DNA of 64,000 bases from an uncultured Bacilli bacterium. GTDB taxonomy: Bacteria; Bacillota_I; Bacilli_A; RF39; UBA660. The position numbers and the translations under genes were made by a program. Below, piece after piece: positions 9,733 to 30,358 of the stretch (position 1 is its first letter; each line of letters opens with the position of its first letter). The notes beneath the pieces were generated by a model. That model worked only from the letters and a program-made list of their open reading frames with translations, ran no database searches and was not told the DNA's origin. The stretch spans positions 1,325 to 65,324 of the forward strand of contig CANRBS010000003.1 in NCBI GenBank assembly GCA_947628895.1, read 5' to 3'.

Positions 9733-10101
9733 TTAATTATTAGCATCTTTTACTAATGCTTTACAATCTTTTCCAAATGGTCCAGTTATACATTCCATAC
9801 ATGATTTATATTCATCATGTCCTACCAAATTCATAACTACTGATACAATAACACCAATTAAGAATACAATAACAGCTGCAATTGCTCTTTTAACAAGTTT
9901 ATTTTGAGCTTCTTTTATTTTATCTTCACTCTTTTCAGTTACAGCTTTAGCCATATCCATCATACCAACAATAATTAATATAATTGGAACAGCAACCATA
10001 ATTCCCCAATATACAATTCCAACAAATTTTAATACTGGTGCTAAATCAGAACATAATGCTTCTCCACTTGTATAATCTAATAAATTTATTAAATTTAACA
10101 T
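9733..10101 (-). CDS. Small membrane protein, two predicted TM helices plus Cys-containing tail (last gene of Tad-like string)
   Basis: 122 aa. Hydrophobic helices VLKFVGIVYWGIMVAVPIILIIVGMM and AIAAVIVFLIGVIVSVVMNLV are separated by a charged loop. C-terminus reads ...YKSCMECITGPFGKDCK.... The two-helix layout resembles VirB2/TrbC-like pilins, but that is only a resemblance. Confidence 0.55.
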   Translation of the reverse strand: MLNLINLLDYTSGEALCSDLAPVLKFVGIVYWGIMVAVPIILIIVGMMDMAKAVTEKSEDKIKEAQNKLVKRAIAAVIVFLIGVIVSVVMNLVGHDEYKSCMECITGPFGKDCKALVKDANN

Positions 10102-10179
10102 TTTACACCCTCTCCTTCACTAATTAAATTTTATATAATTTATATTATTTTGTCAATAAAATTGTATGTTACTTTACAT

Positions 10180-11190
10180 TTATAATCCAATTTTATTAAT
10201 AAATTTAATTAAAGACTCATTTTTTTCTTGTCTATCATCAAGTGCTGGTATAGCAAATAAAACTTTCAATTTTGTTTCATATTCAAATGTAGCTACATCT
10301 TCACTATTAAGCACACATTTATTTAATAATACTTTTTTATCTTTTAATGACTCTAATATTCCTTTATTTTTTCTTAACATTTTATTTATCATAATTGTAG
10401 ATGGCTCTATTAAATAATATACATCAGTACATATTTCTAAATCTTCATAATCATTCAAATCAAGCAAAATAATATCACAATTAGCTTGTCTTCTCATAAT
10501 CTCTTTTAATACATCTTGAGTATTAGAACTAACCATATCTGGATCATTAAAATATAAAAAATCTACTTTATTTATTTCAATTGCATTAACTTTTCTACTT
10601 GATTGTAAATTCTTTTTTAACATATATATAAGAGATGTTGCACCTGCATGATTTGTAACATTTTTAAATCCTATTATTTTAAGTTTATTACTACTTGATG
10701 TTGGTTCTACAACATTATTATTAACAAATGCATTATTATTTGGTTGAATAAAATTATTTTGTTGTTGAGGCATTGGCATTGTTGATTGAGATATTTTATT
10801 ATCAATTTCTTGAATGTTAGTCATATTTACAACATCTTTTAATGTATGTGGATGAACTATTAAATAATTAATTCCATCTACATTTCTTGTAAAATTATAA
10901 ATACCTAAAGAAATTAGTTTTGATATAAATTGAGGATTATTAGTTTCTGGTGTATCATCTAATAATAATATAAGATTTTCCATATTTAAATTCATAGCAA
11001 GTTTTTGTAAATTATCAACATTTTGATAATCTCTAATAGAAGTTATATCTAATATCATTTTGTCAAAATAAAAATTTGTAAATGTATCTATTATTTCATC
11101 TACATTATAAACACCTTCTAAAGACTTTACTATTTCAATATTTAAACTTTTTAATAATTCTTTGTATTTGTTGCAAACCATTACATTCAT
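10180..11190 (-). CDS. tadZ: TadZ/CpaE-like protein: receiver-like N-domain plus ParA/MinD-fold domain with degenerate Walker A
   Basis: 336 aa. The N-terminal ~115 aa alternate beta/alpha like a REC fold (...KMILDITS...LILLLDD...). The C-terminal part reads KIIGFKNVTNHAGATSLIYMLKKNL...CDIILLDLN...YYLIEP and aligns to the KGGVGKTT-type P-loop of CpaE/TadZ, but lacks the Lys and Gly residues. Confidence 0.5.
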   Translation of the reverse strand: MNVMVCNKYKELLKSLNIEIVKSLEGVYNVDEIIDTFTNFYFDKMILDITSIRDYQNVDNLQKLAMNLNMENLILLLDDTPETNNPQFISKLISLGIYNFTRNVDGINYLIVHPHTLKDVVNMTNIQEIDNKISQSTMPMPQQQNNFIQPNNNAFVNNNVVEPTSSSNKLKIIGFKNVTNHAGATSLIYMLKKNLQSSRKVNAIEINKVDFLYFNDPDMVSSNTQDVLKEIMRRQANCDIILLDLNDYEDLEICTDVYYLIEPSTIMINKMLRKNKGILESLKDKKVLLNKCVLNSEDVATFEYETKLKVLFAIPALDDRQEKNESLIKFINKIGL

Positions 11191-11208
11191 GATTTAATCC
11201 CTCCTAGT

Positions 11209-11760
11209 TTATTCAAAATTAAAATCTTTTGAATTTAAATTTCCTGAAACATCACATTTGTAGCTTCCATTATCATAATAAATTGTTCTCGTTTCACCAG
11301 AAATAGGCATTTTAAGAGTAACATTTATTACAGGTATTCTAATAGCTATAAATGTAGTGATTTTATAGTAAGTGTTACCAGCTTGATTACCAGTCGGACA
11401 AACTTTTGTTAAACAGAATCCACCACTTTGCATTTTACCAGCCAAAGATTCATCACCACTTTTAACAGTTGAACAATCTATTTGACTAGTAGTGCTATAA
11501 TTATAACCTAAGTTTTTTATTTTTAGAAAAGCTGAAGCTTCTACACTTTTATCAGCTTTTAACTGATCATCTGAAGCATTCTTAATATCACCTTTACTAT
11601 ATACAGTATATCCCTCATTTTGTTCAATTAAATTAATTATTTCATTTTTCGTATTAAATGCTTTAGTGTAAGTAATAGAATATGCTAAAAAACTAGAAAA
11701 TAATGCTATAAAAGTTATAACTATACCAAATAACCAACTTCCACCTATAGCTTCTCTCAT
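11209..11760 (-). CDS. Pseudopilin/TadE-like N-terminally anchored protein
   Basis: 183 aa. MREAIGGSWLFGIVITFIALFSSFLAYSI hydrophobic N-terminus, then a Cys-containing extracellular domain. The call rests on position in the Tad-like string; there is no canonical TadE motif. Confidence 0.4.
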   Translation of the reverse strand: MREAIGGSWLFGIVITFIALFSSFLAYSITYTKAFNTKNEIINLIEQNEGYTVYSKGDIKNASDDQLKADKSVEASAFLKIKNLGYNYSTTSQIDCSTVKSGDESLAGKMQSGGFCLTKVCPTGNQAGNTYYKITTFIAIRIPVINVTLKMPISGETRTIYYDNGSYKCDVSGNLNSKDFNFE

Positions 11761-11841
11761 ATTGAACTCCTTTTATTCTAATATCTAAAAAAAACTATAA
11801 ACTATAATACTATAATTTATAGTTAATTATTATTTTTAATA

Positions 11842-12114
11842 TTATTGATCAACTGCTTCACATTTGCTTTGATCCCAAGTAGTAGTACCATTACAACAAC
11901 CCCAAGCACTTACTTTAGCACTTGTACTTGTATTTTTATCATTCCCACCTGGATTTTTTACTGCATGCCAATTTTCACCCATTGTATTACAAGTTTGTTG
12001 TACAATTTGTCTTTGTATCATTGGCCACATTACAAAATAGAATAATGCAGCAAGTGCAGCAACAGCAATTAATGTTACAACTGTCATGTTTAATTCACCT
12101 GTAGCTTCTTTCAT
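11842..12114 (-). CDS. Candidate major pilin (Flp/type IV pilin-like N-terminal helix), non-canonical leader
   Basis: 90 aa: MKEATGELNMTVVTLIAVAALAALFYFVMWPMI..., then a small 4-Cys domain. It sits directly downstream of the tadC-like gene, as flp-type pilins often sit beside tad genes. It lacks the G/xxxxEY or G/FTLxE consensus. Confidence 0.4.
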   Translation of the reverse strand: MKEATGELNMTVVTLIAVAALAALFYFVMWPMIQRQIVQQTCNTMGENWHAVKNPGGNDKNTSTSAKVSAWGCCNGTTTWDQSKCEAVDQ

Positions 12115-12185
12115 TTATTTAATTCCTCCTTTACTCTATCTATATTAATTATATAATATGTATTTTTCATAATCAAGTATTTTCA

Positions 12186-12989
12186 CTATAAATTGCCAAA
12201 CATTTGTAAAATAGAAAGTAATAATAATACCATTACTCCAGCACCAGTACCAACAAGCATTGACATAGTCTTCTTTTCCATTTTATCAAGTCTTTCTTTA
12301 TATTTAGTATCTCTTGATTTTGCTTGTAAATTTGATATAGTTCTTGAGAATACTATTAATTGTTCTTGTTTTCTTTCTTGACTACCAAGACTAAGTCTAT
12401 AAAGAAGTCTCATCATACGCATTGAATCTCTTACAGGATATCTTCTAGCAAATGCCATATAAGGCTCAATTGTTGAGTCACCTGCATCAATTGAAGCAAT
12501 TAATTCACGAAGACCTGGTTTAAACATTTCAGGTGCTTCTTCTAAACTTCTTGTAATTGCAACTGGTACAGTATAGTGTTGTATTAATATTTCTAAACTT
12601 TTTAAATAATAAGGCAATTTTAAATTAATATCATGTAAATGAACTTTATAATAGTTCTTAAGTTTATTATAATCATCTTTAAAAATTAAATACGTAACTG
12701 CTAAAACTAAAACTATTTTTATTGCTATATTAAGTCCATCTATACTAGTCATTACAACTATCATTAAAATAATAAATACAATTATAGCATTTTTAACTCT
12801 TTTTTGATATTTTTGGTTTGGATCAACCTTGTCACCATACCTACTAGTAACAAGAAAATCCCAATCATCCTCTTTTAATTTTCCAAAAACCACTTTATTA
12901 TCATCAACAAACTTATTAAAACTAAATACTCCAATATAGTTAAATAAGAAAATTAAGATAATTCCAACAGCTAAAATTTCTATTCCCAT
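12186..12989 (-). CDS. tadC: Tad platform protein, T2SS-F family (TadC-like)
   Basis: 267 aa. N-terminal and C-terminal TM helices flank a helical cytoplasmic domain (...EAPEMFKPGLRELIASIDAGDSTIEPYMAFARRYP...). The start overlaps the tadB-like stop by 1 nt. Confidence 0.6.
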   Translation of the reverse strand: MGIEILAVGIILIFLFNYIGVFSFNKFVDDNKVVFGKLKEDDWDFLVTSRYGDKVDPNQKYQKRVKNAIIVFIILMIVVMTSIDGLNIAIKIVLVLAVTYLIFKDDYNKLKNYYKVHLHDINLKLPYYLKSLEILIQHYTVPVAITRSLEEAPEMFKPGLRELIASIDAGDSTIEPYMAFARRYPVRDSMRMMRLLYRLSLGSQERKQEQLIVFSRTISNLQAKSRDTKYKERLDKMEKKTMSMLVGTGAGVMVLLLLSILQMFGNL

Positions 12990-13888
12990 TATTCAGCACC
13001 TACATCCTCATGGTAATATTTAATTCCAGTTACTAAAAAGAATGTATTAATTAATATTACACCATGAAGTAATATTATAACATACCAATCTTCTAACATT
13101 TTTAAATAACTATCATTTCCAAGTAATAACTGTACTAATAATACTAATAAATATAAGGCACAACCAAATGTTAAGAATTGCTTATAAAAATTAGTTCTAT
13201 CAATTCTATCACGATAAACACTTTCAACAAGCATATCTATATCTTGAAGCATTCCTTCTAATGCTTCACCTGAATCTTTAGATCCTTCTTTAGTAATTTG
13301 AATAAATAATTGATGCATATTTTTTACTACATAATAATCATATTTTTCATTCATAAATCTTACAGCTTCATCAATAGTACCATTATCATAAGCCATTTGA
13401 ATCATTTCTTTAATATCACTAAGTAATGGATCTTCAAGAACTCCTGAATCTCTTACACCTTCTAATGATTTTACAAATGATTGAGTAGTATTATATTCCA
13501 TAATAACATTTGTAGTATATACTTGTATTTGTTCAAATATGAATTCACTATATGCTTTTTTACATCTCATATATGCAAGATATGGAATAAAAGCTATCGC
13601 GGCCACTGCATATACAACACTCCATATAATACTATAAAAATATAAATAAGATACGAAAGCTGCTGCTACACCAAATATAACTACTTGCATTAAATATTGT
13701 TTAGGAGTATATTCTTGGCCTAATTCTTTAGCTTTTTCACGAACAACTTTAAATGAATATGGAGCATATTTTTCATATGTATTACCTATTGTTTTAGCTA
13801 TAAATTTATATGAATTTGTACCTGTGTTTTTTCTATATATAAATACAAATAATAATATTGCAACTATAACAAATATTTCTATATACAT
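12989..13888 (-). CDS. tadB: Tad platform protein, T2SS-F family (TadB-like)
   Basis: 299 aa. TM helices plus the helical domain ...LEDPLLSDIKEMIQMAYDNGTIDEAVRFMNEKYD...EGSKDSGEALEGMLQDIDML..., typical of the GspF/TadB fold. Confidence 0.6.
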   Translation of the reverse strand: MYIEIFVIVAILLFVFIYRKNTGTNSYKFIAKTIGNTYEKYAPYSFKVVREKAKELGQEYTPKQYLMQVVIFGVAAAFVSYLYFYSIIWSVVYAVAAIAFIPYLAYMRCKKAYSEFIFEQIQVYTTNVIMEYNTTQSFVKSLEGVRDSGVLEDPLLSDIKEMIQMAYDNGTIDEAVRFMNEKYDYYVVKNMHQLFIQITKEGSKDSGEALEGMLQDIDMLVESVYRDRIDRTNFYKQFLTFGCALYLLVLLVQLLLGNDSYLKMLEDWYVIILLHGVILINTFFLVTGIKYYHEDVGAE

Positions 13889-13900
13889 TTTTCACACCTC

Positions 13901-15421
13901 CTAAAAATTTAATACTTCTATTCCACCTGATGATGAGTTATTATTATCATTATTTCCAGCTATATCATTAACACTAACAAATAATCCAGACATATCATTT
14001 TCATTTTCAAAATTGTTTAATTCACTCTGTGTAGATAATTCAGTAGTTTGTGTATTTTCAATTTGAGGAGTATCAGTATTTTGAATCTCAGTATTTTCAT
14101 CATTAATTGCCATATCACTTGCTTGTACATCAACAATAGGTGTTGATTCAACATTTTCCTGAGCTAAAGTAGAGCTTTCAACTACAGGAGTTGATTCTAT
14201 ATTTTCTTGAACTATATTTGGTGTTTGAGATGATTCAACACTATTTTCATCTTGTTCTACAGAATTAACATTTTCTACGGCATTAAGTGATTGATTATTA
14301 TCTACATTTTCAGGTTGATTTTCATCTGAACCATCAGATGTACTTTCATTTATTTCACTTCCCTTTGGAATAAATGGATCCTCTCTCATAACTACACCTT
14401 GAGATGCTAAATAATCTATTAAATGACTTGTTGGATTATTATAACTTTCATTACCAGCTAAGTCACGAGAATAAAGAACATTTACTTTAGCTTCATTAGC
14501 ATCATCATCTACATAAAATTCAACAACTTGTGTAATTTCTCTTTGAAATCTATTATATTGTTTTGAATAAAATCCTTTAACATGTATACCTAATTGAATA
14601 TATCTATGCATACCTTTAACAAATTGATCTATATCTTGACTAGATTCAAGCAATGAATATAAACGCATTGGAATACTTGATGCTTTATCAGAGTGAATTG
14701 TTGATAAAATGTTATGTCCTGAAGAAATAGAGTTACGAACAGCCATAACTGCTTCAGCAGAACGAACCTCTGATAGTAAAATCCATCTTGGGTTTTGACG
14801 CATACAAGCTACTAATACATCTGAATAAGATGCTATATTATTTGTTTTCATTGCTACAATATCACGAGTTGGATAAATTTTATCTAAGTGAAGCTCTAAA
14901 GTATCTTCTATTGTAATTATTTTTTCGTCTTCTTTAATATGACTTGCTAAATATTTAACAAGTTCTGTTTTACCACTACCAGTTTCTCCACTTACTAGTA
15001 TATTGCAGTGACCCTCTACACAAGTAATTAAGAAATCATGTAATTTTAATGATACATAATCTTCTTGAACTAATTTCTCTTTTTGTAATCTAATTTTAGC
15101 AGGTGTTTTTCTTATTAAAACAGCAATTCCATTAGTAGCAATAGAATCATGAACAAAATTAAGACGCAACTCAGCACTTTCAGCATCTAGAAGTGGATGA
15201 GCCATATTAAATGTTTTACCCATAACATTAGAACATTGAAAAGCTAATTTTTCCATAACTTCATTGTTTAGTCCATCTATATGTTCTGGATAAACACCTT
15301 TAGATAAAGATTTAACCCATAATTGACCACCATTAGAATATGAAATATCTGTTATATCATCATTTTCTAATAATGGCATTAATAATCCAAAATCAATTTG
15401 TGAAAATACTATCGTGTCCAT
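13901..15421 (-). CDS. tadA: CpaF/TadA-type secretion ATPase (VirB11/GspE superfamily) with ~150-aa acidic low-complexity C-terminal tail
   Basis: 506 aa. Walker A VSGETGSGKTELVKYL, ...ITIEDTLEL..., ...RQNPRWILLSEVR..., His box ...SGHNILSTIHS.... The tail (about nt 13901-14370) is E/N/Q/S-rich and has a repeated QEN(I/V)ESTP(V/I)V unit. Confidence 0.85.
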   Translation of the reverse strand: MDTIVFSQIDFGLLMPLLENDDITDISYSNGGQLWVKSLSKGVYPEHIDGLNNEVMEKLAFQCSNVMGKTFNMAHPLLDAESAELRLNFVHDSIATNGIAVLIRKTPAKIRLQKEKLVQEDYVSLKLHDFLITCVEGHCNILVSGETGSGKTELVKYLASHIKEDEKIITIEDTLELHLDKIYPTRDIVAMKTNNIASYSDVLVACMRQNPRWILLSEVRSAEAVMAVRNSISSGHNILSTIHSDKASSIPMRLYSLLESSQDIDQFVKGMHRYIQLGIHVKGFYSKQYNRFQREITQVVEFYVDDDANEAKVNVLYSRDLAGNESYNNPTSHLIDYLASQGVVMREDPFIPKGSEINESTSDGSDENQPENVDNNQSLNAVENVNSVEQDENSVESSQTPNIVQENIESTPVVESSTLAQENVESTPIVDVQASDMAINDENTEIQNTDTPQIENTQTTELSTQSELNNFENENDMSGLFVSVNDIAGNNDNNNSSSGGIEVLNF

Positions 15422-15443
15422 ACTTTAATTCCTTTCTATTTTT

Positions 15444-16202
15444 TTAATCTACTATATCTGGTTCAATATGTTCTGTTTTACTTTCTATTAAACCTTTTAA
15501 ATATTCACTTGAAATATTAGTTTCTTTATCATATGATGCATTTCTTGGTACTGGTATTAAAGAACCACTACTTAAATACATTGCTTTTCTAAGTAATAAA
15601 TGATAATCTTCAGGAACTGAGAATATTAGTGCTGATGCATTTCTTTGATCTGCACTTCTTTTAAAGATATGTTCTCCTCTATCATCTTTAACAGCTAATA
15701 CCTCTATTCCTTCTATCAATTTTCCTAAAACTAACTTATCTCCTTCATATGTTTGATAATATAAATCTATTTTATCTCCAGGAAAAATTGAATTACCATA
15801 TGTTGTAGTTGCATTTACTGGAAGTGAAACTATTGTATTATCATTACTAATATTTGACCAAGCAGAATCAGGCATTTCACTCCATTCTACAACAGCAGAA
15901 CTATAAAATAAACTTCCTTCTGGTATAAATGTATTATAATCTACATAATGATTTAATAATTGATCAGTTCTTGTAATAACATTATCAGTAATTAATGATG
16001 CTGCAACTTTTATTGTTCTAAATGAACTTTCTGTTATTTCAGTTCTTGCATCTAATTTAGTTGCTGCAACAGGAACATTTATTAAATTAGTTGCTTTATC
16101 AACTCTATAGTTATAAGCTACTACTAAAATAACTAAACATATAATAAATGAAATTATTGTTACTATACTTTTATTATGAAATAATTTACTAAGTGCTTTC
16201 AT
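15444..16202 (-). CDS. cpaB: CpaB/RcpC-like Flp pilus assembly protein (SAF + beta-clip), paralog 2
   Basis: 252 aa. N-terminal TM, SAF-like ...VPVAATKLDARTEITESSFRTIKV...FIPEGSLF..., then ...VSLPVNATTTYGNSIFPGDKIDLYY.... Confidence 0.7.
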   Translation of the reverse strand: MKALSKLFHNKSIVTIISFIICLVILVVAYNYRVDKATNLINVPVAATKLDARTEITESSFRTIKVAASLITDNVITRTDQLLNHYVDYNTFIPEGSLFYSSAVVEWSEMPDSAWSNISNDNTIVSLPVNATTTYGNSIFPGDKIDLYYQTYEGDKLVLGKLIEGIEVLAVKDDRGEHIFKRSADQRNASALIFSVPEDYHLLLRKAMYLSSGSLIPVPRNASYDKETNISSEYLKGLIESKTEHIEPDIVD

Positions 16203-17080: not shown

Positions 17081-17123
17081 TCTTTTTTCCTCCTATTATC
17101 ATGATAGTAATCTATTCTAGTTA

Positions 17124-17153
17124 ATTATAACACAAAATATTTACTTAATTCAA
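17124..17153 (-). promoter_or_regulatory. Sigma-A-type promoter for the cpaB-tadA-tadBC unit
   Basis: Minus strand reads TTGAAT (17153-17148), an 18-nt spacer, then TGtTATAAT (-10 at 17129-17124). Confidence 0.45.
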
Positions 17154-17161
17154 TATGTTTC

Positions 17162-17195
17162 AAAATAAAAATGTTTAGAATTTTAATTTCTAAAC
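17162..17195 (-). terminator. Rho-independent terminator after the 140-aa gene
   Basis: GTTTAGAA (17173-17180) pairs with TTCTAAAC (17188-17195). The minus-strand hairpin is followed by ATTTTTATTTT. Confidence 0.55.
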
Positions 17196-17203
17196 ATCAC
17201 TAA

Positions 17204-17626: not shown

Positions 17627-17711
17627 ACTAAACCTTCTTTCAATATTACTATGTATTCTTTATAACAATTATATCAAATAAAAGAAATATTTTAAAGTAT
17701 TTTTTTATATA

Positions 17712-18350
17712 TTAAATACCATGTTTAATTTTTCTAAATTTATTACTATAAATAGAAGTAAAAACAATACATGATACTAAAAATAATACAAATTTAATTC
17801 CCCAATTTAATGCAAAAGCTTGCATTTTATCTAATAAAGTTTCTTTTTCTTCAGTTTTTTCTTCTTTTTGTTGTTCTTGAAGTATTATATTATCATAATT
17901 TTGTTTAGCAGTTACTAATATTTCTTCTGTTACTAAGCTTGTTGTAAATTGAGAATTACACATAGTGATTTTATCTTCATATCCTGCACAAGCACCAGTT
18001 CCATAAAATTTATTATAATATAATAGATTTACAAAAATTGTTCTAAGAGATGTATCACAATTGTCATTACCATAAACTTTTATTACCATATTTGTTCCTT
18101 CATTTATTTTATTTATAGTAACTTCATTATTTGAATTACTTTCATATTTTTTATCATCATATTCTACAAATAATCCATCAACAACATTGTAAACTACTAT
18201 ATCATATGTTCTAGTATTTACATTATAATTAGTATCATAAGTTATATTATTTGCAAGTAATGCATATTTATCATGTTTATCATGATCACATTCTGCTGAA
18301 TAAACAACAAATGGAAGTAACATCAATAATACAACAAATATTTTTTTCAT
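17712..18350 (-). CDS. Secreted Cys-containing protein with C-terminal TM + basic tail; third paralog of the 225-aa cassette protein
   Basis: 212 aa. Signal peptide MKKIFVVLLMLLPFVVYSA. Shares ...VYG.D.C...LRT...N(K/R)(F/Y)...C.GYEDK..MC... and an E/K-rich segment with the proteins at 24677-25354 and 28987-29664. Also shares the C-terminal helix + KFRKIKHGI layout. Confidence 0.55.
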   Translation of the reverse strand: MKKIFVVLLMLLPFVVYSAECDHDKHDKYALLANNITYDTNYNVNTRTYDIVVYNVVDGLFVEYDDKKYESNSNNEVTINKINEGTNMVIKVYGNDNCDTSLRTIFVNLLYYNKFYGTGACAGYEDKITMCNSQFTTSLVTEEILVTAKQNYDNIILQEQQKEEKTEEKETLLDKMQAFALNWGIKFVLFLVSCIVFTSIYSNKFRKIKHGI

Positions 18351-18352
18351 TT

Positions 18353-19984: not shown

Positions 19985-20041
19985 TTTCTCTCCTTATTAT
20001 ATATTAATGATATCACATTTTTAATTAAAAAAAAATATGAA

Positions 20042-20551
20042 TTATTCAATTTCATATTTACTTATCATATTGTCTAATACTTTATAATTAATTAGTTTTA
20101 ACTCACTACTTACAGCTTCAACAGCTTGTCCATTTTTAATATATATTATTAATGGAGCATTAACTATTTCATAACTTACATTTGGAAATTTATTTTGAAG
20201 AATATCAATATATTTATCTTTTACATCATTTACATTCCAATATATTATTTTATCTGTTAAATTTTTCTTTTTTATTTCTTTATATAATCTTTTTTCCATT
20301 TTATAAATACTATTTGAATTAGTATAACTAACATATAAAATAGCTTCATTTGTCTCACTTAAAGCATAATCAATATCACTATCATTTATTTCTTTTATAG
20401 TTTTATCCATAAAAACAGAATTATTTATTTTCTTTGATTTTACATTTAAATAAATACTTCTACAACTTAATGTTAATACAATTACTATAATAGAAACAAC
20501 TAATACAATATAATAATTATTACTATTAATTTTCTTAAATATTTTATTCAT
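20042..20551 (-). CDS. Membrane-anchored protein, possible thioredoxin-like fold without CXXC
   Basis: 169 aa. N-terminal TM. ...AILYVSYTNSNSIYKMEKRLYKEI...IIYWNVNDV...APLIIYIKNGQAVEAVSS follows the thioredoxin beta-alpha-beta layout, with SNSI where CXXC would be. By-eye call only. Confidence 0.35.
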   Translation of the reverse strand: MNKIFKKINSNNYYIVLVVSIIVIVLTLSCRSIYLNVKSKKINNSVFMDKTIKEINDSDIDYALSETNEAILYVSYTNSNSIYKMEKRLYKEIKKKNLTDKIIYWNVNDVKDKYIDILQNKFPNVSYEIVNAPLIIYIKNGQAVEAVSSELKLINYKVLDNMISKYEIE

Positions 20552-20611
20552 AATATATCCTTACCCTTCAATATAATATTATTTTATCACAATTTTAAAT
20601 ATTATTAAACT

Positions 20612-20662
20612 TTAATTAAAAAAGAAAGATTACTTTTATAATTATTTTTATAATCTTTCTTT
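20612..20662 (-). terminator. Rho-independent terminator after the 1335-aa gene
   Basis: AAAGAAAGATTA (20621-20632) pairs with TAATCTTTCTTT (20651-20662). On the minus strand the hairpin is followed by a T-run. Confidence 0.6.
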
Positions 20663-20667
20663 TTTAC

Positions 20668-23600: not shown

Positions 23601-24675
23601 TATTTCCACCATCTAAATCAAATCCTTGATTTGGATTTACACAATATGCTGGAACATTACCTACTTGAAATGATGGAGTACATGCTTGAAATGTTTGTAA
23701 TTGCCTATTGCATTGATAAACTGGACACATTAATCTGTATCTTATTGACCGATTTCCAGTAGCAAAACCTATTGCATTTGGTTCTATCTTTGCTGCTGCA
23801 CTTTCACACAATCCCCAAAAATCTTCGTTTGTTTTTTCACCTTCTGTTGCTATTACTACTTCAAATGGATCAATAGTTTTAAGACAATTATTTAGAAGTA
23901 CATTTGAACCTAAGTGTAGAGTATAATCATCATTTTTGCATTTATAACACCTTTGATTGCTACTATTATATGTATAGCCAGTTGGACATTTATAACATTT
24001 ATCAGTATTTAACAACATTTCGCCATTAGGGCAAGAATAATTAGTTGCACTATGATAAGTACCTGAACAATATCCATTATAACCACCTGTACAAGAACCT
24101 TTTCTACCATTTTTACCTACATTCCAAGTACATCCATTCCTAGTACACTGAGTAATATTTGAATAATTACAACTTTTTGGATCATGCCAAGTACATGTAG
24201 ATTTGTTGTTGCATGTACTTTTAGAAAGACCACTACAATTTGACCAAATTTTATTTTCTGTAGCCTTTCTCATATAAGTTAAATTTGAAGATAGCATTTC
24301 GCCTTTAGCAACAACTACACAAAGGCCAAATGCTTCAACTTTTCTTTCATCACTTGAGCATCTTTGATAATAAGTTGTATATGTTCCTTTATTATCTGGT
24401 CTCCAATTAGTGGCTTGTAAAAGATCACTAAATGACTCTGCAACTTTATCATAATTTGGACCTTCATATACATTAGCAAAAGCTGGAGAACCATCTGCTG
24501 CTTTTGCTCTTGAAAATCCATTACAAACCTCTGTTTTAATATTAAATCCAGCAGGAGATGCTTGACTAGTTTCATTTATTTTTACATTGCAGTCATTAAT
24601 TCCTGCCTTGCTTATAGGAATAAATGAAAAAACAAGAGAAATTGTAAATAATAATTTTAAAAATTTCTTTTTCAT
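20668..24675 (-). CDS. Giant cysteine-rich secreted protein, unknown family (paralog B1)
   Basis: 1335 aa. Signal peptide MKKKFLKLLFTISLVFSFIPISKA, no C-terminal anchor. Many Cys, e.g. ...YSCPNGEMLLNTDKCYKCPTGYTYNSSNQRCYKCKNDDY.... Conserved blocks are shared with 25437-28985. The start lies 1 nt after the stop of the upstream 225-aa gene. Confidence 0.8.
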   Translation of the reverse strand: MKKKFLKLLFTISLVFSFIPISKAGINDCNVKINETSQASPAGFNIKTEVCNGFSRAKAADGSPAFANVYEGPNYDKVAESFSDLLQATNWRPDNKGTYTTYYQRCSSDERKVEAFGLCVVVAKGEMLSSNLTYMRKATENKIWSNCSGLSKSTCNNKSTCTWHDPKSCNYSNITQCTRNGCTWNVGKNGRKGSCTGGYNGYCSGTYHSATNYSCPNGEMLLNTDKCYKCPTGYTYNSSNQRCYKCKNDDYTLHLGSNVLLNNCLKTIDPFEVVIATEGEKTNEDFWGLCESAAAKIEPNAIGFATGNRSIRYRLMCPVYQCNRQLQTFQACTPSFQVGNVPAYCVNPNQGFDLDGGNNYKVDNDFDVTNCQTSYSTVDCGYANIMIEADYHKKKNNTNISDKAIELAMRIWGAHSGQAGFGNDKIGVSRAKWNGSSCADTGFFDSTNVYKNGYNHIFENYLKSLTAKNLPDNYLDVSQNYINDYFSEVTCNYTNMVCGSTTTLRQALALFYNTVLGNRYMQEHLEYLYGNEVNTRPDKVDVETSEEQNDKGEFVKGETNIVLTFDRTVTNTTKTEYNCKDVKKDAELPLDKRTYQDLTDTQRAYILQYCTVKVDNFCIYNDVTDKCEKIDVNDNDKIYDASKGQIIIDTEYFAVCTSENKNKYKEYQVSVNYKRPTQSTSVKKYVSCSNPTGNQIMFAFTTSENNKVSGEEEKNDSYYYPTEEYSVSLNCTGNCTDYSIKTSAPKCQDNDGGVYTGYVRDPSLKCIVNMYSDTNKSYYDYSEYFKVNTNLCRVYCADEVNYYIADKLTVSSGRSFTYDIKPGGVLENKDNKISSIIEEKRRCVSEIYYNKNFPESIDWKKLYGITDKDLEDAFPSGEKSINNIQDLLTVLFIKSQKENSRDENINQILYDLYNCNLYTEEAVKNTEQEKNGQVVIKENIIRQPQDNKTGNLNKYLKNLYSSENHYGLNNDITNTITYEGGAQYINNKNRFIGTNSDDIKVEKEIRSNLSDISYCSGDNCLEYDVSASQDDNYAYDKFKDESTTATVKNAIEVKKTLTGLTERLNDLYITKIPINDYAMFYTSIQIDFYNDSEFKMEALTGEVKKSTDEGSLDVVALDKYSYPTSKDAYNSGKCKVIDSNVARCDITQTINNMTTYYRRRSLDSFSKYLTSTDFTELTCHIDVTRPSVLPQESQSGNSDSITDPITKYRNVKLSDLFPNGDRINSNWATEYGKIAKNEIEKSSSQINSDLYLEYSFDLTPQSIREIKSYNRKVEGQGGYLNDTKISGTCTQKDNKFFNCKSSFLEEIRGGNSLYVNNNDQKNKFDGISKYTAEKK

Positions 24676-25419
24676 TTTATTTCTCTCTTTCTTTCTTTTT
24701 ATATTTCGTTATCTTTACTATATATATTATTGTTATTACTACTAATGGTACTAATACATATATTCCATATTCCATTGCTATTTTAAATATCTTACTTGCT
24801 GTTAATTCTTTCTCTTTTATTTGTCTATCATATTCTCCTAGTGTCTCTTTAAATTCACTCTCTTCCATATCCTTTGTTGCATTTGTATATGTTTTACATA
24901 ATTCATGATCTGGATATTCTTCACAATATTCTGTCTTTATATATCTATTAAATCTTGGCACTGTATATCTTAATGTCTTTAATAATTCATTTGGACATGC
25001 ACTATCTTCTTTTCCATATACTTCTATTGTATATGTCTCTTCTTCTAAATTTGTATAACATCCTACTCCATATATCCCTACACTATCATAATTCTTTCCT
25101 TCTGCCTTATTTCCACTTCCATCTGTTACTATTATCTTTACATCATCTCTTAATGGTGTTATTGATAAAAAATATGCATATGTTTCTTCTTCACTCATTT
25201 CTCCTGATGGATCTGTTGTCCTTGTATCTTCCTTAAATGTTGCACTTACTCCTACTGCCCATTCATTTAGTTCTTCATCATAACATAATGCTTTTACATT
25301 TATTACTAATAATGATGAAATTATTACTATAATTAATTTTACTAATTTTTTCATTATTTCACCTACTTTTACTCTAAATAAAATTATATCAAATAAAATA
25401 GAAAAAAGAAAGATTTTAT
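24643..25419. repeat. 777-bp direct repeat, copy 1 (5' end of B1, whole A1 gene, A1 upstream region)
   Basis: Aligned by eye to 28953-29729 at a constant offset of 4310 nt with no indels. I found about five mismatches. Confidence 0.9.
24677..25354 (-). CDS. Small secreted protein with C-terminal TM anchor (paralog A1 of the cassette)
   Basis: The track ORF (272 aa) is trimmed to the internal ATG at 25354. That start gives the 225-aa MKKLVKLIIVIISSLLVINVKA... form, which differs at only two residues from 28987-29664, and it has AGGTGA upstream. Five Cys, an E/K-rich segment, then C-terminal helix + KYKKKEREK. Confidence 0.75.
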   Translation of the reverse strand: MKKLVKLIIVIISSLLVINVKALCYDEELNEWAVGVSATFKEDTRTTDPSGEMSEEETYAYFLSITPLRDDVKIIVTDGSGNKAEGKNYDSVGIYGVGCYTNLEEETYTIEVYGKEDSACPNELLKTLRYTVPRFNRYIKTEYCEEYPDHELCKTYTNATKDMEESEFKETLGEYDRQIKEKELTASKIFKIAMEYGIYVLVPLVVITIIYIVKITKYKKKEREK

Positions 25420-25432
25420 AAAAATCTTTCTT
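25395..25432 (-). terminator. Rho-independent terminator after the 1182-aa gene
   Basis: AAGAAAGATTTT (25406-25417) pairs with AAAATCTTTCTT (25421-25432). The minus strand then reads TTTTCTATTTT. The duplication boundary (25419) falls in the loop. Confidence 0.65.
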
Positions 25433-25436
25433 AAAC

Positions 25437-28400
25437 TTATTTATTTTCTTTAGTATATTTTGAAATACCATCAAATTTATTATTAGGACTATCATTATCT
25501 ACATATAATGAATTACCACTACCTATATCTCTTAAGAATGAACTTTCACAATTAAAGTATTTATCATTTGTTAAAGTACAATTTGATAATGTATTATTTA
25601 AGTAACCACCGTTTTTTTCCATTCTAGAATTATAATTTTTAATTTCTCTAATAGATTCTGGTGTTAAATCAAAACTATACTCTAAATAATAATCATCATT
25701 AGTAATTCTACTTGAAGATTCAGCTATTTCATTTTTTGCTATAGTTCCATATTCAGTTGACCAATTTGTATTATCTCTTTCTCCATTTGGGAATAAATTT
25801 GATAAATCTACATCTCTATATATAGTCTTACTATTAGCTGACTGTTCTACTGTAACTTCAGGTATTTTTACATCTACAGAACAATTAAACTTTGTAAGAG
25901 TTGATTTAGTTAAAGCATTACTTAAGTCATCAGTTTTTCTATTTCTGTAAAAAGTACTTGCATTACTAAATGTTTGAGTAACACCACAACTTGCATAGTC
26001 TTTTGATGATTTGCTACATAAATTATATGCATTTTTAGATAATGGATATGAAAAACTATCTAGTTTAGCATAATTTTCATTATATGAACCTATAATCTTA
26101 TTTACTTTTCCACTATATTGTTCTATTTCAAATTCACTTGAATTATAGAAACCAATTTGTGTTGTTATAGTAAACATTGCATAATCATTAACAGGAATTT
26201 GTGTATCTAATATTTTCTTTAAATTCTTAATAGAAGTTGATTTACCATCAATTTCATATCCTGTTGATCCTAATTCAATATTACCAAAAGTATCATAAGT
26301 ATATTTTTCATTTTTACTATCATATGGCAAACATTCATAGCCAAATCCTGTACAATACTTAACATCTGATACTTGTGATTTAACTTCTTTCTTCATATCT
26401 ATATCATTGTTATTATTGCCTACTCTTGAAGATGAATTCATATATTCACTTCCACCTTCATATGAAACAGTATTTAGCCACATATCATCTAAATTTTTAG
26501 AATCTACTAAACCATAATTATTTTTACTATTAAATAAAGTATTTACATAATTATAAGAATCTCCGATAGTATTATCTTTAGGTCTTGTTATATTTCCATT
26601 AGTAAATGTTGATATGTCTTTGACAAAATTACAATTATATAAATCATATACTAATTGATTTAAATTTTCAGATCTATAACCTTCAGATTGAGACTTTTTA
26701 AATAATACAAAGAATAAATCTTTCCAATTTCTAATTTTAGGATCATCTTTAAGATATTTATTAATTTCTTCTTCTGTTATTCCATATATTCCTTCCCAAT
26801 CAGGATTATTTGGAAATTCATTATTATAGTATATTTCAGAGACACAATTTCTCTTTTCTTCAATAATACTACTAAACATTTTACCACTATCATTTAATAG
26901 ATTACCTGGTTTAATATCATATTTAAATTGTAAACCAGAAACAGCATCTATTTTTCCTGCTATATGATAGTTAACTTCATCACTACAATATACTCTACAT
27001 AAATTTGTATTTACTTTAAAGTAATTGCTATAATCATAATAATTTTTATTTGTATTTGAACCCATATTAATAATACAACTTAATGATGGATCTTTTACTG
27101 TACTAGTATAGTACTTATTGTATTCTTTTTGACTTTCACATTTACTTACATTTTCTCTTATTCCATAATTAGTACAAGCACCTGCACAATTAATAGATAT
27201 ATTAAATAGTTTATCATCTTTTTCATCTTTTGTTATACTTTCACCTGGTACTTCTTCAGTAACAGAAACTCCTTGAAATGAAAATAAGTATTGATTTTCT
27301 TCTGGTTCACTACAAGCAATATATTTTTCAACACTAGTCTGTGTTTTAGTTTTTAAATATTCAACTTCTAATTCATAATGAGTATATTTCTTTTGACCAT
27401 TAACTTTACAAGCAGCAAACTTTTCTATATCAAAATCTATTGTTCCTTTATATCCATCAAATTCTTTACTATCTTTATCTACATCAATAGGTATTCTATT
27501 TCCATCATTGTCATATACAAAGAAATTTAAAACTTCAATATTACAATATTTTAATATATTTTCTCTTAAAGGTTCATCTATATTAGGATATTTTCTTTTT
27601 TCTTTTGGTAAATCTTTATCTTTTTCTAAATCATTACAATTAAATGTTTCTTCAGTTTGAATATTAACATTTCTTTCAAATGATAATTCTAATCTTGATT
27701 TTTCTTCTACAGTTTCTACTATAGCATTTGTAGGTTCAGTATTAATATCATATCCTACAATACTATATAGATGTTCTTGCATATATTTATTTCCATTATA
27801 TGTATTAAAGAATAAAGCTATAGCTTCAGCATAATTTAGTAATTTACCACAAACCAAACTGTTTTGTGAATTTTTACATGTAACTTCATCAAAATAACTA
27901 TTAGCTTTGCTAGCATCTACATATTCTTCTTTACTTATTTTATCAAAGAAATATTTCCAAATATAATCATGTGTTATTTTATAAATATTAATTACATCAT
28001 CATCTGCAACAAAAGTTACATACTCACTACAAGAACCGCCTATTACATTAGCTACTCCAACTTTTTTATCATCAAATCCTGCTCCACCAGTATGAACACC
28101 CCATAATCTTAATGCAAGTTGTATTTGTTGCTCATCAATATTATGATATTTTCCCTCAATTAATATATTAGCATAACCACAATCTGCTCTATTAAAGCTT
28201 GATGCAAAACATTTATTAATATCAAAAGTTTTATCTAACATATAATTATTACCATTTGATAAAAATGGAGCAAATCCTTGACTAGGATTAACACAATAAG
28301 CTGGTTTTTCACCAGTTGTAAATGTTGGTGTACAAGTAGATACCTCTTCAGTTTTTGCATCACATCCATATAGTGGACAATTTAATGTATATGTTTCACT

Positions 28401-28985
28401 AGTACACTTAGTACAATTATTATCATTTTCTTGATTACATGTAGCTAAAGCATCAAAAGAAGAATCAATATTAGTAAAATCTTTTGACCAAGTAGTTGTT
28501 GTAGTATCAGATTCCCATTTTCTATTTTTATAACAATATCCATTACTTAGATAAGGATATCCAGTTGGACAACGGTGGTTTACCATAGGAGTGCCATCAC
28601 TATAATGCCAATATGGATCACCTTTTGTTTCAACTGTACAAGTTACATTAGCATCTATATGTGCATCAGGAACATCACATCTTTTGACTTGTACTGTTTC
28701 AATTGTTTTAGCATCAATTGATTCTCTAGTTTTATATACCCATTCATTTTGATAATCAAAAGCGGCTTTAACAGTATCAAAACTTTCTGTATCCCATCCT
28801 TTTGGCACAGCATTTTCCATATCACATATAGTAAGATTAGAACTCCAACTAGTATTCCATGTAGAAGGATCATTTTCAGTTATTCTAATAGTACACTCAT
28901 TTCCTGTTACATCAGCATTAGTAAGTGGAATAAATATAAAAGTAAATAAAACTGTAAATAATAATTTTAAAAATTTCTTCTTCAT
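25437..28985 (-). CDS. Giant cysteine-rich secreted protein, unknown family (paralog B2)
   Basis: 1182 aa. Signal peptide MKKKFLKLLFTVLFTFIFIPLTNA. Blocks shared with B1 include ...CTPTFTTGEKPAYCVNPSQGF..., ...DCGYANILIEGKYH..., ...ALRLWGVHTGGAGF..., ...FKVNTNLCRVYCSDEVNYHIA... and ...LEYSFDLTPESIREIKNYN.... Confidence 0.8.
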   Translation of the reverse strand: MKKKFLKLLFTVLFTFIFIPLTNADVTGNECTIRITENDPSTWNTSWSSNLTICDMENAVPKGWDTESFDTVKAAFDYQNEWVYKTRESIDAKTIETVQVKRCDVPDAHIDANVTCTVETKGDPYWHYSDGTPMVNHRCPTGYPYLSNGYCYKNRKWESDTTTTTWSKDFTNIDSSFDALATCNQENDNNCTKCTSETYTLNCPLYGCDAKTEEVSTCTPTFTTGEKPAYCVNPSQGFAPFLSNGNNYMLDKTFDINKCFASSFNRADCGYANILIEGKYHNIDEQQIQLALRLWGVHTGGAGFDDKKVGVANVIGGSCSEYVTFVADDDVINIYKITHDYIWKYFFDKISKEEYVDASKANSYFDEVTCKNSQNSLVCGKLLNYAEAIALFFNTYNGNKYMQEHLYSIVGYDINTEPTNAIVETVEEKSRLELSFERNVNIQTEETFNCNDLEKDKDLPKEKRKYPNIDEPLRENILKYCNIEVLNFFVYDNDGNRIPIDVDKDSKEFDGYKGTIDFDIEKFAACKVNGQKKYTHYELEVEYLKTKTQTSVEKYIACSEPEENQYLFSFQGVSVTEEVPGESITKDEKDDKLFNISINCAGACTNYGIRENVSKCESQKEYNKYYTSTVKDPSLSCIINMGSNTNKNYYDYSNYFKVNTNLCRVYCSDEVNYHIAGKIDAVSGLQFKYDIKPGNLLNDSGKMFSSIIEEKRNCVSEIYYNNEFPNNPDWEGIYGITEEEINKYLKDDPKIRNWKDLFFVLFKKSQSEGYRSENLNQLVYDLYNCNFVKDISTFTNGNITRPKDNTIGDSYNYVNTLFNSKNNYGLVDSKNLDDMWLNTVSYEGGSEYMNSSSRVGNNNNDIDMKKEVKSQVSDVKYCTGFGYECLPYDSKNEKYTYDTFGNIELGSTGYEIDGKSTSIKNLKKILDTQIPVNDYAMFTITTQIGFYNSSEFEIEQYSGKVNKIIGSYNENYAKLDSFSYPLSKNAYNLCSKSSKDYASCGVTQTFSNASTFYRNRKTDDLSNALTKSTLTKFNCSVDVKIPEVTVEQSANSKTIYRDVDLSNLFPNGERDNTNWSTEYGTIAKNEIAESSSRITNDDYYLEYSFDLTPESIREIKNYNSRMEKNGGYLNNTLSNCTLTNDKYFNCESSFLRDIGSGNSLYVDNDSPNNKFDGISKYTKENK

Positions 28986-29729
28986 TTTATTTCTCTCTTT
29001 CTTTCTTTTTATACTTTGTTATCTTTACTATATATATTATTGTTATTACTACTAATGGTACTAATACATATATTCCATATTCCACTGCTATTTTAAATAT
29101 CTTATTTGCTGTTAATTCTTTCTCTTTTATTTGTCTATCATATTCTCCTAGTGTCTCTTTAAATTCACTCTCTTCCATATCCTTTGTTGCATTTGTATAT
29201 GTTTTACATAATTCATGATCTGGATATTCTTCACAATATTCTGTCTTTATATATCTATTAAATCTTGGCACTGTATATCTTAATGTCTTTAATAATTCAT
29301 TTGGACATGCACTATCTTCTTTTCCATATACTTCTATTGTATATGTCTCTTCTTCTAAATTTGTATAACATCCTACTCCATATATCCCTACACTATCATA
29401 ATTCTTTCCTTCTGCCTTATTTCCACTTCCATCTGTTACTATTATCTTTACATCATCTCTTAATGGTGTTATTGATAAAAAATATGCATATGTTTCTTCT
29501 TCACTCATTTCTCCTGATGGATCTGTTGTCCTTGTATCTTCCTTAAATGTTGCACTTACTCCTACTGCCCATTCATTTAGTTCTTCATCATAACATAATG
29601 CTTTTACATTTATTACTAATAATGATGAAATTATTACTATAATTAATTTTACTAATTTTTTCATTATTTCACCTACTTTTACTCTAAATAAAATTATATC
29701 AAATAAAATAGAAAAAAGAAAGATTTTAT
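28953..29729. repeat. 777-bp direct repeat, copy 2 (5' end of B2, whole A2 gene, A2 upstream region)
   Basis: See copy 1. Identity ends at 29729/25419 on one side and decays below 28953/24643 on the other. Confidence 0.9.
28987..29664 (-). CDS. Small secreted protein with C-terminal TM anchor (paralog A2)
   Basis: 225 aa. Differs from A1 at two residues (N/S and V/M). Confidence 0.75.
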   Translation of the reverse strand: MKKLVKLIIVIISSLLVINVKALCYDEELNEWAVGVSATFKEDTRTTDPSGEMSEEETYAYFLSITPLRDDVKIIVTDGSGNKAEGKNYDSVGIYGVGCYTNLEEETYTIEVYGKEDSACPNELLKTLRYTVPRFNRYIKTEYCEEYPDHELCKTYTNATKDMEESEFKETLGEYDRQIKEKELTANKIFKIAVEYGIYVLVPLVVITIIYIVKITKYKKKEREK

Positions 29730-30325: not shown

Positions 30326-30358
30326 AAAAAGAATATTTTAGTCATAATATTCTTTTTT
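30325..30358. terminator. Bidirectional rho-independent terminator between convergent genes
   Basis: AAAAAAGAATATT (30325-30337) pairs with AATATTCTTTTTT (30346-30358). The arms themselves are A/T-runs, so it can act on either strand. Confidence 0.6.

Follow-up and report, generated by a model that had tools for sequence, protein, structure and literature searches.

A chromosomal window of 64,000 nucleotides from an uncultured Bacilli bacterium (assembly GCA_947628895.1, contig CANRBS010000003.1, positions 1,325 to 65,324; "the window" denotes this whole stretch) carries a cluster in which genes for a Tad-like engine stand next to a sortase fusion and two cassettes encoding giant cysteine-rich proteins. 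The window has a G+C content of ~23%, is chromosomal and includes pcrA, metS, a Sir2 gene, ABC transporter genes and a WecA/MraY-family gene. The cluster occupies positions 9733-29664 and consists of 17 open reading frames (ORFs) on the minus strand, all reading in the same direction (Table 1). The first-pass annotation of this DNA had listed 17 co-directional genes, and all of them were recovered with the sizes and positions that it gave. An integrated mobile element or prophage was rejected, because the chromosomal context with pcrA and metS is kept across species and no tRNA, phage or transfer genes were found in the window. A megablast search of the whole region against plasmids and phages gave no match.

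AT-rich terminator-like hairpins with U-runs stand after both giant genes (25407-25431 and 20617-20666), after the DUF5411 gene (17170-17198) and after the gene for the 90-amino acid (aa) protein (11794-11823). They were seen by folding, a scan for GC-rich terminators having missed them. Folding thus confirmed the terminators said earlier to divide the region into several transcription units and added the fourth one. The cysteine contents are 3.1-3.7% in the giant proteins, 4.4% in the 90-aa protein, 3.3% in the 122-aa protein, 2.2-2.4% in the 225- and 212-aa proteins and 2.2% in the 183-aa protein, compared with 0.1-0.7% in the other exported proteins of the window. The earlier statement that nearly every exported product is cysteine-rich therefore applies to these seven exported cluster products, at 2.2-4.4%, and not to the DUF5411, CpaB-like and PedC-like proteins, which are not enriched.

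Table 1. Genes and repeats of the cluster and its neighbours, with positions in the window
Feature	Position	Strand	Remarks
225-aa type I membrane protein, copy A	28987..29664	-	signal peptide, 4-Cys ectodomain, C-terminal transmembrane (TM) helix, K/R tail
Giant secreted Cys-rich protein, 1182 aa	25437..28985	-	37 Cys, Sec signal peptide, no anchor
225-aa membrane protein, copy B	24677..25354	-	within the 777-nt duplication
Giant secreted Cys-rich protein, 1335 aa	20668..24675	-	49 Cys; paralogue of the 1182-aa protein
PedC-like protein, 169 aa, N-terminally anchored	20042..20551	-	PF20207/DUF6568, 1.1e-21; without CxxC
Sortase fusion, 543 aa	18353..19984	-	orphan N-domain of ~270 aa, TM helix, linker, class B sortase domain
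212-aa type I membrane protein	17712..18350	-	paralogue of the 225-aa protein
DUF5411 pilin-like protein, 140 aa	17204..17626	-	PF17424, 2e-47
CpaB/RcpC-like protein 1, 292 aa	16202..17080	-	PF16976 28.3 bits; TIGR03177 3.8e-9
CpaB/RcpC-like protein 2, 252 aa	15444..16202	-	RcpC/CpaB profile matches just below cut-off
Secretion ATPase, CpaF/VirB11/FlaI clade, 506 aa	13901..15421	-	PF00437 1.6e-28; acidic low-complexity tail
Polytopic TadB/GspF-like platform candidate, 299 aa	12989..13888	-	transitive link via a Priestia plasmid protein
Second platform candidate, TadC-like, 267 aa	12186..12989	-	BLASTP to a Priestia plasmid protein
90-aa candidate major pilin	11842..12114	-	invariant N-terminus MKEATGELNMT; 4-Cys C-terminal part
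183-aa pseudopilin-like protein	11209..11760	-	MREAIGG, then hydrophobic helix; 4 Cys
336-aa cytoplasmic protein	10180..11190	-	synteny kept; no family match
122-aa two-TM membrane protein, 4 Cys	9733..10101	-	syntenic
777-nt near-identical repeat	copy A 28953-29729, copy B 24643-25419	-	promoter-like element, 225-aa gene, start of giant gene
LtaS-like sulfatase-family enzyme, conserved downstream neighbour, candidate member only	7651..9642	-	syntenic in L008, L010, L012, L014, L015, L026
HD-domain protein, upstream neighbour, candidate member only	29756-30325	+	synteny
56-aa protein, upstream neighbour, candidate member only	30338-30508		synteny
864-aa orphan cytoplasmic protein, upstream neighbour, candidate member only	30516-33110		synteny

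Related loci were available with their DNA from 28 places, numbered L001 onwards, and a 29th was listed; all come from metagenome-assembled genomes (MAGs) of uncultured gut Bacilli, Tenericutes or Mollicutes (rabbit, rumen and human). In 28 of the 28 loci and in the 29th place, a giant gene adjoins the DUF5411, CpaB-like, ATPase and platform genes, so the link between the cassettes and the Tad-like genes survives the gene-neighbourhood comparison. The sortase fusion is present in nearly all of the 28 loci. A scan with its orphan N-terminal domain, taking one genome per GTDB species, returned 20 loci, all with the full cluster and all from uncultured gut MAGs titled Bacilli, Tenericutes, Mollicutes, Erysipelotrichaceae or 'Clostridium sp.'. 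All contigs that are long enough show the same order, in which PcrA, 862-aa, ~60-aa and HD-domain (opposite strand) genes are followed by one or two pairs of a 225-aa and a giant gene, the PedC-like, sortase fusion, 212-aa, DUF5411, two CpaB-like, ATPase, 299-aa, 267-aa, ~90-aa, ~170-aa, ~335-aa and ~120-aa genes and the LtaS-like gene.

The cassette is found at different places within this order. It lies upstream of the PedC-like gene in L001-L013, and between the 212-aa gene and the DUF5411 gene in L017-L026, whereas L011 has it at both sites. In L017-L028 the DUF5411 gene comes right after the giant gene; in the window, the sortase unit intervenes. Distant relatives of the giant proteins (profile E values of 1e-26 to 1e-66) keep the DUF5411, CpaB, ATPase and platform neighbours. 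The smallest version, L028, has only a 225-like gene, a giant gene, the DUF5411 gene, two CpaB-like genes, the ATPase gene and two platform genes; the position expected for the sortase unit, immediately upstream, is taken by a transglutaminase-like gene. Engine and giant proteins thus stay linked in L028, with no sortase gene directly upstream, and also on Bacillus plasmids that lack a sortase. As the cassette moves within the cluster and the distant relatives keep their neighbours, chance adjacency or mere phylogenetic inertia is unlikely.

Comparisons across species showed identities of 76-95% for the ATPase and 74-95% for the platform candidates, 68-81% for the neighbouring PcrA, 52-82% for the sortase fusion, 30-75% for the 225- and 212-aa proteins and only 24-48% for the giant proteins. 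As judged from these sequences, the pattern is that of a strongly constrained machine with rapidly diversifying surface-exposed parts, and the region is probably one functional system of an uncultured gut Bacilli lineage of very low GC content. Alternatively, a Tad-like pilus, a sortase unit and Sec-secreted exoproteins could be independent neighbours whose synteny reflects a young or little-rearranging lineage. The hairpins and separate promoters between the units, the ordinary Sec signal peptides of the giant proteins and the fact that pcrA and the LtaS-like gene are also syntenic, which makes synteny alone weak evidence, all agree with such an arrangement. However, the divergence (PcrA 68-81%, giant proteins 24-48%) is too large for a young lineage, the cassette has moved and yet stays inside the cluster, and L028 keeps the giant, 225-like, DUF5411 and engine genes while its other parts differ. 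On unrelated Bacillus plasmids, moreover, the gene immediately before DUF5411 encodes a large protein that has the C-terminal domain of the giant proteins. Independent neighbours are thus an unlikely explanation.

The ATPase, first described as CpaF/TadA, carries the sequences GETGSGKTE, IEDTLEL and GHNILSTIHS, corresponding to Walker and His-box motifs, and matches PF00437 at 1.6e-28. In NCBIfam it scores 112 bits for VirB11, 100 for TadA-conjugal, 100 for FlaI and 96 for TrbB, all far under the equivalog cut-offs. Its membership of the T2SSE superfamily is clear from sequence, but the assignment to the TadA, VirB11 or FlaI subfamily is ambiguous. The C-terminal ~160 residues (13901-14400) form a long acidic low-complexity tail in this genome and in the closest relatives L006 and L009 (506-539 aa); the ATPases of other species have ~370-440 aa.

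The two proteins described as CpaB-like SAF/RcpC proteins have scores consistent with that name but just under the threshold (27.6 and 28.3 bits against an RcpC/CpaB cut-off of 28.8). They match TIGR03177 at 8e-9 and 4e-9, with 35-36 bits against a cut-off of 71, and their homologues on metagenome contigs bear precomputed RcpC matches. The 299- and 267-aa proteins had been called type II secretion system (T2SS) F platform proteins. A search covering six platform-like proteins gave no T2SSF or other Pfam match for them even at E <= 10 and none in NCBIfam, a PDB profile search with the TadB-like 299-aa protein gave no match, and an alignment of the 299- and 267-aa profiles by hhalign showed no detectable similarity. 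An AlphaFold2 (AF2) model of the TadB-like protein from a shallow alignment reached a predicted local distance difference test (pLDDT) score of 63, too poor for an informative Foldseek search. What stands is a transitive link. The 299-aa protein matches a Priestia plasmid protein at a BLASTP E value of 4e-9, and that protein is named T2SS F family by PGAP and scores 24.2 bits (3.4e-5) against the PF00482 cut-off of 25.2. The 267-aa protein matches, at 9e-21, the product of the gene following the T2SSF gene on the Priestia plasmid. The 336-aa protein, once labelled TadZ-like, has no Pfam, NCBIfam or PDB profile match and does not resemble the AAA_31 protein encoded in the Priestia module. The 122-aa protein shows faint matches below the cut-offs to T4SS_pilin and Mbov_0395 pilin-like profiles. 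The ATPase and sortase domains are the only components of the cluster with a known function.

The 299-aa platform candidate has homologues in >8000 90%-identity clusters in public metagenomes, of which the best 120 listed are all >=82% identical, pointing to a widespread and uncharacterised machine. This extreme conservation of ATPase and platform candidates (74-95%) suggests a near-essential role. Such a role could be that of a pseudopilus for the uptake of DNA or nutrients, possibly essential in a reduced-genome organism, with the giant proteins as unrelated passengers; the lineage is labelled Tenericutes- or Mollicutes-like in record titles. Tad-dependent transformation has been reported in Micrococcus. 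For Liberibacter it is indicated by the title of a paper cited in PMC11680825. However, no ComEA- or ComEC-like genes are listed in the window or in the flanks with Pfam hits, and an uptake function leaves the linkage of the giant proteins and their shared C-terminal domain unexplained. An uptake pseudopilus is accordingly held to be quite improbable.

The 90-aa, 183-aa and DUF5411 proteins begin alike, with M[KR]E[AS]xxG and then a hydrophobic helix. In the 90-aa protein, MKEATGELNMT is invariant and the following hydrophobic helix is highly conserved, while the 4-Cys C-terminal part is variable; the DUF5411 protein starts with MKESVWG. None of the candidate pilins (MKEATGE, MREAIGG, MKESVWG) has Glu/Tyr at +5/+6, and neither a Flp pilin nor a Peptidase_A24 (TadV prepilin peptidase) match was found in the window or the flanks. 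By sequence, these three proteins are pilin-like and not Flp-like. The 183-aa protein gave a weak hint of relation to the DUF4320 protein of plasmid modules (hhalign 27%, E 7e-4). The DUF5411 proteins of other species are extended at the C-terminus by a dockerin or another module, so that DUF5411 should be surface exposed. The DUF5411 protein itself ends in a dockerin in L001, L003, L008 and L012, which hints at a cohesin-dockerin attachment to the putative filament. Two secreted proteins with cadherin-like, SH3_3 and dockerin domains are encoded at 974-4755 of the window.

The two cassettes share a 777-nt segment whose copies differ by 5 mismatches (99.4% identical). It includes the 225-aa gene with an extended -10 promoter-like element (TGATATAAT) and reaches ~80 nt into the giant gene, covering the signal peptide. 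The bodies of the giant proteins (1182 vs. 1335 aa) are ~42% identical, and the near-identity of the 5' block points to gene conversion. The 272-aa ORF at 24677-25495 is an artefactual extension of the second 225-aa gene; with the true start at 25354, both cassettes have the composition first described, a 225-aa plus a 1182- or 1335-aa protein. In copy A, the 225-aa stop and the giant-gene start are 1 nt apart. The signal peptides of the giant proteins are ordinary, so these proteins are inferred to be exported by Sec. The 225- and 212-aa proteins are both type I membrane proteins and are paralogues (hhalign 96.7%, E 3.5e-10). A role of the 225-aa protein as the counterpart of plasmid SLH proteins was rejected, as there is no similarity between them.

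The large proteins indeed lie outside well-characterised families. The 1182-, 1335-, 225- and 212-aa proteins have no match in Pfam or NCBIfam, and a PDB profile search and a tblastn search against plasmids gave none for the giant protein. A word-indexed search found ~50 homologues, none of them named, and an exhaustive profile search extended the family to 453 clusters at 50% identity. The AF2 model of the giant protein is a chain of beta and helical domains (pLDDT 80, predicted template modelling score 0.68) without a Foldseek match at E <= 0.001 in PDB or BFVD. About 25 cysteines are invariant in the alignment. Being fast-evolving, duplicated and recombination-prone, the giant proteins are candidate host- or partner-binding determinants of abundant uncultured gut bacteria.

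The same features would also suit polymorphic effectors of contact-dependent antagonism, with the 225-aa proteins as immunity or chaperone partners. The Kil system of Myxococcus is a Tad-like apparatus for contact-dependent antagonism, and here the duplicated, fast-evolving giant genes are each translationally coupled to a small membrane protein and preceded by a recombination-prone conserved 5' block. However, no toxin, enzymatic or pore-forming domain was found by Pfam, NCBIfam, PDB profile or Foldseek searches. Variation is concentrated in the N-terminal and central parts and conservation at the C-terminus, the reverse of typical polymorphic toxins. The gene of the small partner comes first, and its product has a signal peptide. 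Effector delivery is therefore the least probable of the alternatives considered.

Residues 352-535 of the 543-aa fusion pass the SrtB equivalog TIGR03064 with 173.5 bits (cut-off 153.75), in agreement with the first-pass annotation, and His430, the TLSTC motif with Cys525, and Arg532 are invariant in five species. By these sequence features, the C-terminal domain is a bona fide class B sortase. The highly conserved N-terminal domain of ~270 aa, predicted to be cytoplasmic, is an orphan with no match in Pfam, in a PDB profile search or by tblastn against plasmids. The 212-aa gene starts 3 nt past the sortase stop, and its product has a near-invariant cytoplasmic tail, K[FLY]RK[IV]KHGI. This tail and the sortase N-domain may point to a coupling to cytoplasmic parts of the machine. 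Neither the giant, 225- and 212-aa proteins nor any other ORF of the window or of the 28 loci showed an LPXTG- or NPxTN-like sorting signal. The reported lack of a sorting-signal substrate and of a prepilin peptidase in the window was thus borne out, and the suggestion that the sortase provides wall attachment found no support. The 225- and 212-aa proteins were rejected as sortase substrates, as no conserved motif precedes their TM helix. The PedC-like protein owes its name to a label in precomputed Pfam hits for PF20207 (DUF6568). It was first taken as thioredoxin-like; no conserved Cys pair or CxxC motif is present in 20 aligned homologues, and the absence of this motif excludes a function as thiol oxidoreductase.

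The best plasmid matches of the ATPase (32-36% identical) are 'CpaF/VirB11 family' proteins of Bacillus, Priestia and Paraclostridium plasmids. On the Priestia koreensis plasmid NZ_CP061869, the genes are ordered SLH protein, Ig-like 993-aa protein, DUF5411, SAF/CpaB, AAA_31, CpaF, T2SS-F family, 279-aa protein and DUF4320, and B. cytotoxicus pCh2_53 has the same gene order. A tblastn search with DUF5411 against plasmids gave no match. In Roseburia, Ruminococcus and Eubacterium, an operon of DUF5411, CpaF and PilC/GspF with an internalin-like protein was predicted by a language model (Miller et al. 2022, PMC9523054). The conjugation operons of pLS20 and pAW63 hold a leaner version (PMC8557374, PMC1196294), consisting of a large adhesin, small anchored proteins, 'VirB11', two membrane proteins, a DUF4320-like protein and tiny pilin-like proteins. 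The plasmid 'VirB11' modules also contain two tandem 47-aa proteins annotated as hypothetical, each of the size of a Flp pilin and with one central hydrophobic helix (MLDQN...). These copies are identical on a pLS20-type plasmid (L031, 12197-12510) and near-identical on a Paraclostridium plasmid (L030, 12196-12599). These tandem Flp-sized pilin-like proteins speak for the plasmid modules being Tad-like rather than the VirB11 of a type IV secretion system (T4SS). On sequence grounds, the engine of the cluster is a member of a recurrent DUF5411-type Tad-like module of Firmicutes that is regularly paired with a large surface protein.

The giant proteins share a C-terminal domain with the large proteins of the Priestia and B. 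cytotoxicus modules. Alignment of the giant-family profile with the Priestia 993-aa protein by hhalign gave a probability of 85% and an E value of 6.6e-6, C-terminus to C-terminus, and alignment with an 852-aa 'conjugal transfer protein' of B. cytotoxicus gave 1.2e-4. The common motif is YRxVDxxNxFPxG..NW ... EYSxTLTPxxIxxIKxYN, and the domain spans residues 1050-1133 of the 1182-aa protein. In the reciprocal direction, a hidden Markov model (HMM) built from the two plasmid C-termini placed 29 giant proteins on top of 628 ORFs with E values down to 1.2e-6; the first unrelated protein followed at 0.43. By tblastn, the domain was found on 75 plasmids, almost all of Bacillus. A profile search in a set of 5.8 billion proteins yielded only three fragments, a yield restricted by the word prefilter and the E value for the size of the database. 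The large proteins are otherwise unrelated, and the genes of those bearing the domain precede DUF5411, with nothing in between on the plasmids and in many loci. The simplest reading of unrelated large proteins sharing a domain upstream of DUF5411 is that it docks the protein to the machine. The shared domain ties the giant orphan proteins to large proteins beside the same engine on Bacillus-group plasmids.

These plasmid relatives raise the possibility of an apparatus for conjugation or DNA transfer, or its remnant, in which the ATPase would be a VirB11, the giant proteins mating adhesins and the 122-aa protein a T4SS pilin. VirB11 gives the best NCBIfam score of the ATPase, the closest plasmid relatives include pLS20-type conjugation operons beside VirD4, and the pLS20 adhesin upstream of the module is needed for efficient conjugation (PMC8092201). 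The faint T4SS_pilin and Mbov_0395 matches of the 122-aa protein and a serine recombinase at 37623-39242 point the same way. However, no VirB4, VirD4/FtsK or relaxase was found among the ORFs of >=100 aa of the window, and none is listed in the flanks of the metagenome loci with precomputed Pfam hits. The cluster is chromosomal, beside pcrA in many species, and the conservation of its engine exceeds that of PcrA, which is not what a mobile element would show. Moreover, the plasmids with the Priestia and B. cytotoxicus modules are typed as only mobilizable. A role in DNA transfer is thus improbable.

Comparison with known systems places the cluster closest to the DUF5411-type modules (the operon in PMC9523054, Priestia and B. 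cytotoxicus). The order of large surface protein, DUF5411, SAF/CpaB, ATPase, two platform proteins and small pilin-like proteins is the same, the platform proteins are homologous (E 4e-9 and 9e-21) and the large proteins have a common C-terminal domain. The differences are the sortase fusion, the 225- and 212-aa proteins, the PedC-like protein and the Cys-rich giant proteins, all present in the cluster and lacking in these modules, and an SLH protein and an AAA_31 (TadZ/ParA-like) gene of the plasmid modules where the cluster has a second CpaB paralogue. In pLS20 (genes 34-41) and pAW63 (CDS 17-26), the ATPase is 32% identical to that of the cluster. Behind it come two membrane proteins of about 267 and 245 aa, the first of them matched by BLASTP at an E value of 9e-4, then an N-terminally anchored protein of ~120 aa and tiny proteins resembling pilins; a large adhesin without known anchor lies ahead. 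However, this version lacks CpaB, a Pfam-recognisable DUF5411 and a sortase, the pLS20 adhesin is a thioester/CnaB protein without the common C-terminal domain, and the module stands among VirD4, VirB4, VirB6 and relaxase genes, whereas the cluster is chromosomal and has none of these.

The canonical Tad/Flp systems of Aggregatibacter, Caulobacter and Bifidobacterium resemble the cluster in a secretion ATPase followed by a platform pair (candidates only in the cluster), in CpaB-like proteins and in small pilin-like proteins whose hydrophobic N-termini are conserved. In contrast, a Flp G/XXXXEY motif and a recognisable TadZ/CpaE are missing from the cluster and TadV from the window, the ATPase is not assignable to TadA rather than to VirB11 or FlaI, and the cluster adds the giant proteins, the sortase and membrane partners. 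The earlier term Tad-like engine is therefore apt in the sense of a Tad- or type IV filament-like machine, but not of canonical Flp/Tad. The sortase B systems (Isd-type and SrtB of Clostridioides difficile) have the same class B domain with conserved His, Cys and Arg. Relative to the sortase families matched, the fusion adds the conserved N-terminal domain of ~270 aa before the TM helix, and it differs from sortase B systems in that no sorting-signal substrate was found in or near the locus. Type IV filament engines and sortases normally belong to separate Gram-positive surface-assembly pathways. A literature search found no description of a system joining a Tad engine with a sortase, as the first-pass annotation had maintained. 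The joining with a sortase appears to be new; the DUF5411-type module itself is known and had already been noticed computationally (PMC9523054).

From the gene content, conservation, synteny, family links and shared C-terminal domain described above, we infer a filament, docking of the giant proteins on it and an adhesin function. The best explanation, with a probability of about one half, is that the region encodes a monoderm Tad-like member of the type IV filament superfamily, a surface structure displaying anchorless disulfide-rich adhesins. The ATPase, the platform pair and the CpaB-like proteins would assemble a short filament or pseudopilus through the envelope from the pilin-like proteins. 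The giant proteins, exported by Sec, rich in disulfides and each co-translated with a membrane-anchored 225-aa partner, would use the C-terminal domain to dock on the filament, probably at or near the DUF5411 subunit, or the filament would release them through the wall by means of this domain. Their diversifying N-terminal and central parts would then face outward as variable adhesins or receptor-binding modules. The sortase fusion, the 212-aa paralogue and the PedC-like protein would form a lineage-specific accessory unit that may mature, cross-link or anchor a component. None of the four alternatives fits a cassette that moves but is retained, together with the shared C-terminal domain, as well as this filament mechanism.

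Several observations weigh against the filament mechanism. The module type is known from genes alone, and no filament has ever been seen. The terminator-like hairpins divide the region into four or more transcription units. A Flp motif and a prepilin peptidase are absent from the window and flanks, and no sorting-signal substrate for the sortase was found in the window or the 28 loci. The 299- and 267-aa proteins are only candidate platform proteins, identified through a transitive link with no direct HMM or structural support, and the TadZ label of the 336-aa protein is without support. With their Sec signal peptides, the giant proteins can be exported without a dedicated engine. The reciprocal HMM is weak on the two giant proteins of the window alone (E 0.19-0.32), and the pLS20 adhesin, TIE, has no match to the C-terminal domain of the giant proteins.

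More tentatively, the DUF5411-type module may be a general monoderm machine that displays or releases large anchorless surface proteins via a C-terminal docking domain on a short type IV-like filament, with the cluster as its most elaborate form. If so, the orphan cytoplasmic domain of the sortase might couple the enzyme to the engine, and the cluster would appear to be indispensable in a reduced-genome lineage of gut Bacilli. TIEpLS20 does not rely on sortases and lacks a known anchor, and its mode of attachment is left open in the study describing it (PMC8092201). A general machine would explain how TIEpLS20-like adhesins are held and what the 'VirB11' of Gram-positive conjugative plasmids does. 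The attachment of anchorless adhesins and the role of the plasmid 'VirB11' module become testable in Bacillus subtilis, which is cultivable and genetically tractable.

Outside the cluster, most related genomes have the HD-domain, 56-aa and 864-aa genes in the interval from pcrA to the cluster; in L024, no 864-aa gene was detected. Just beyond pcrA (35765-39242) are the large serine recombinase, an APH-family kinase and an NMT1-like protein. As other genes (agmatine deiminase, YgjV) flank pcrA in related genomes, this block may be a small insertion. A second, unrelated fibre system may be present in the window, where a SipW-type (archaeal-type) signal peptidase I is encoded at 46086-46694 (TIGR02228 87 bits, cut-off 52). 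Two adjoining proteins of ~190 aa, which together with the peptidase occupy 46086-47940, include one whose signal peptide ends in GATFAWFS, which we take to be TasA/camelysin-like, and a 400-aa protein with 10 Cys follows at 48014-49216. A 3031-aa secreted protein encoded at 51089-60184 has a GLUG-motif match only and 0.1% Cys, and is a giant surface protein of another kind than the Cys-rich family. A protein with collagen triple-helix repeats (BclA-like GPT repeats) is encoded at 44372-44986, beside a GT2/TPR glycosyltransferase.

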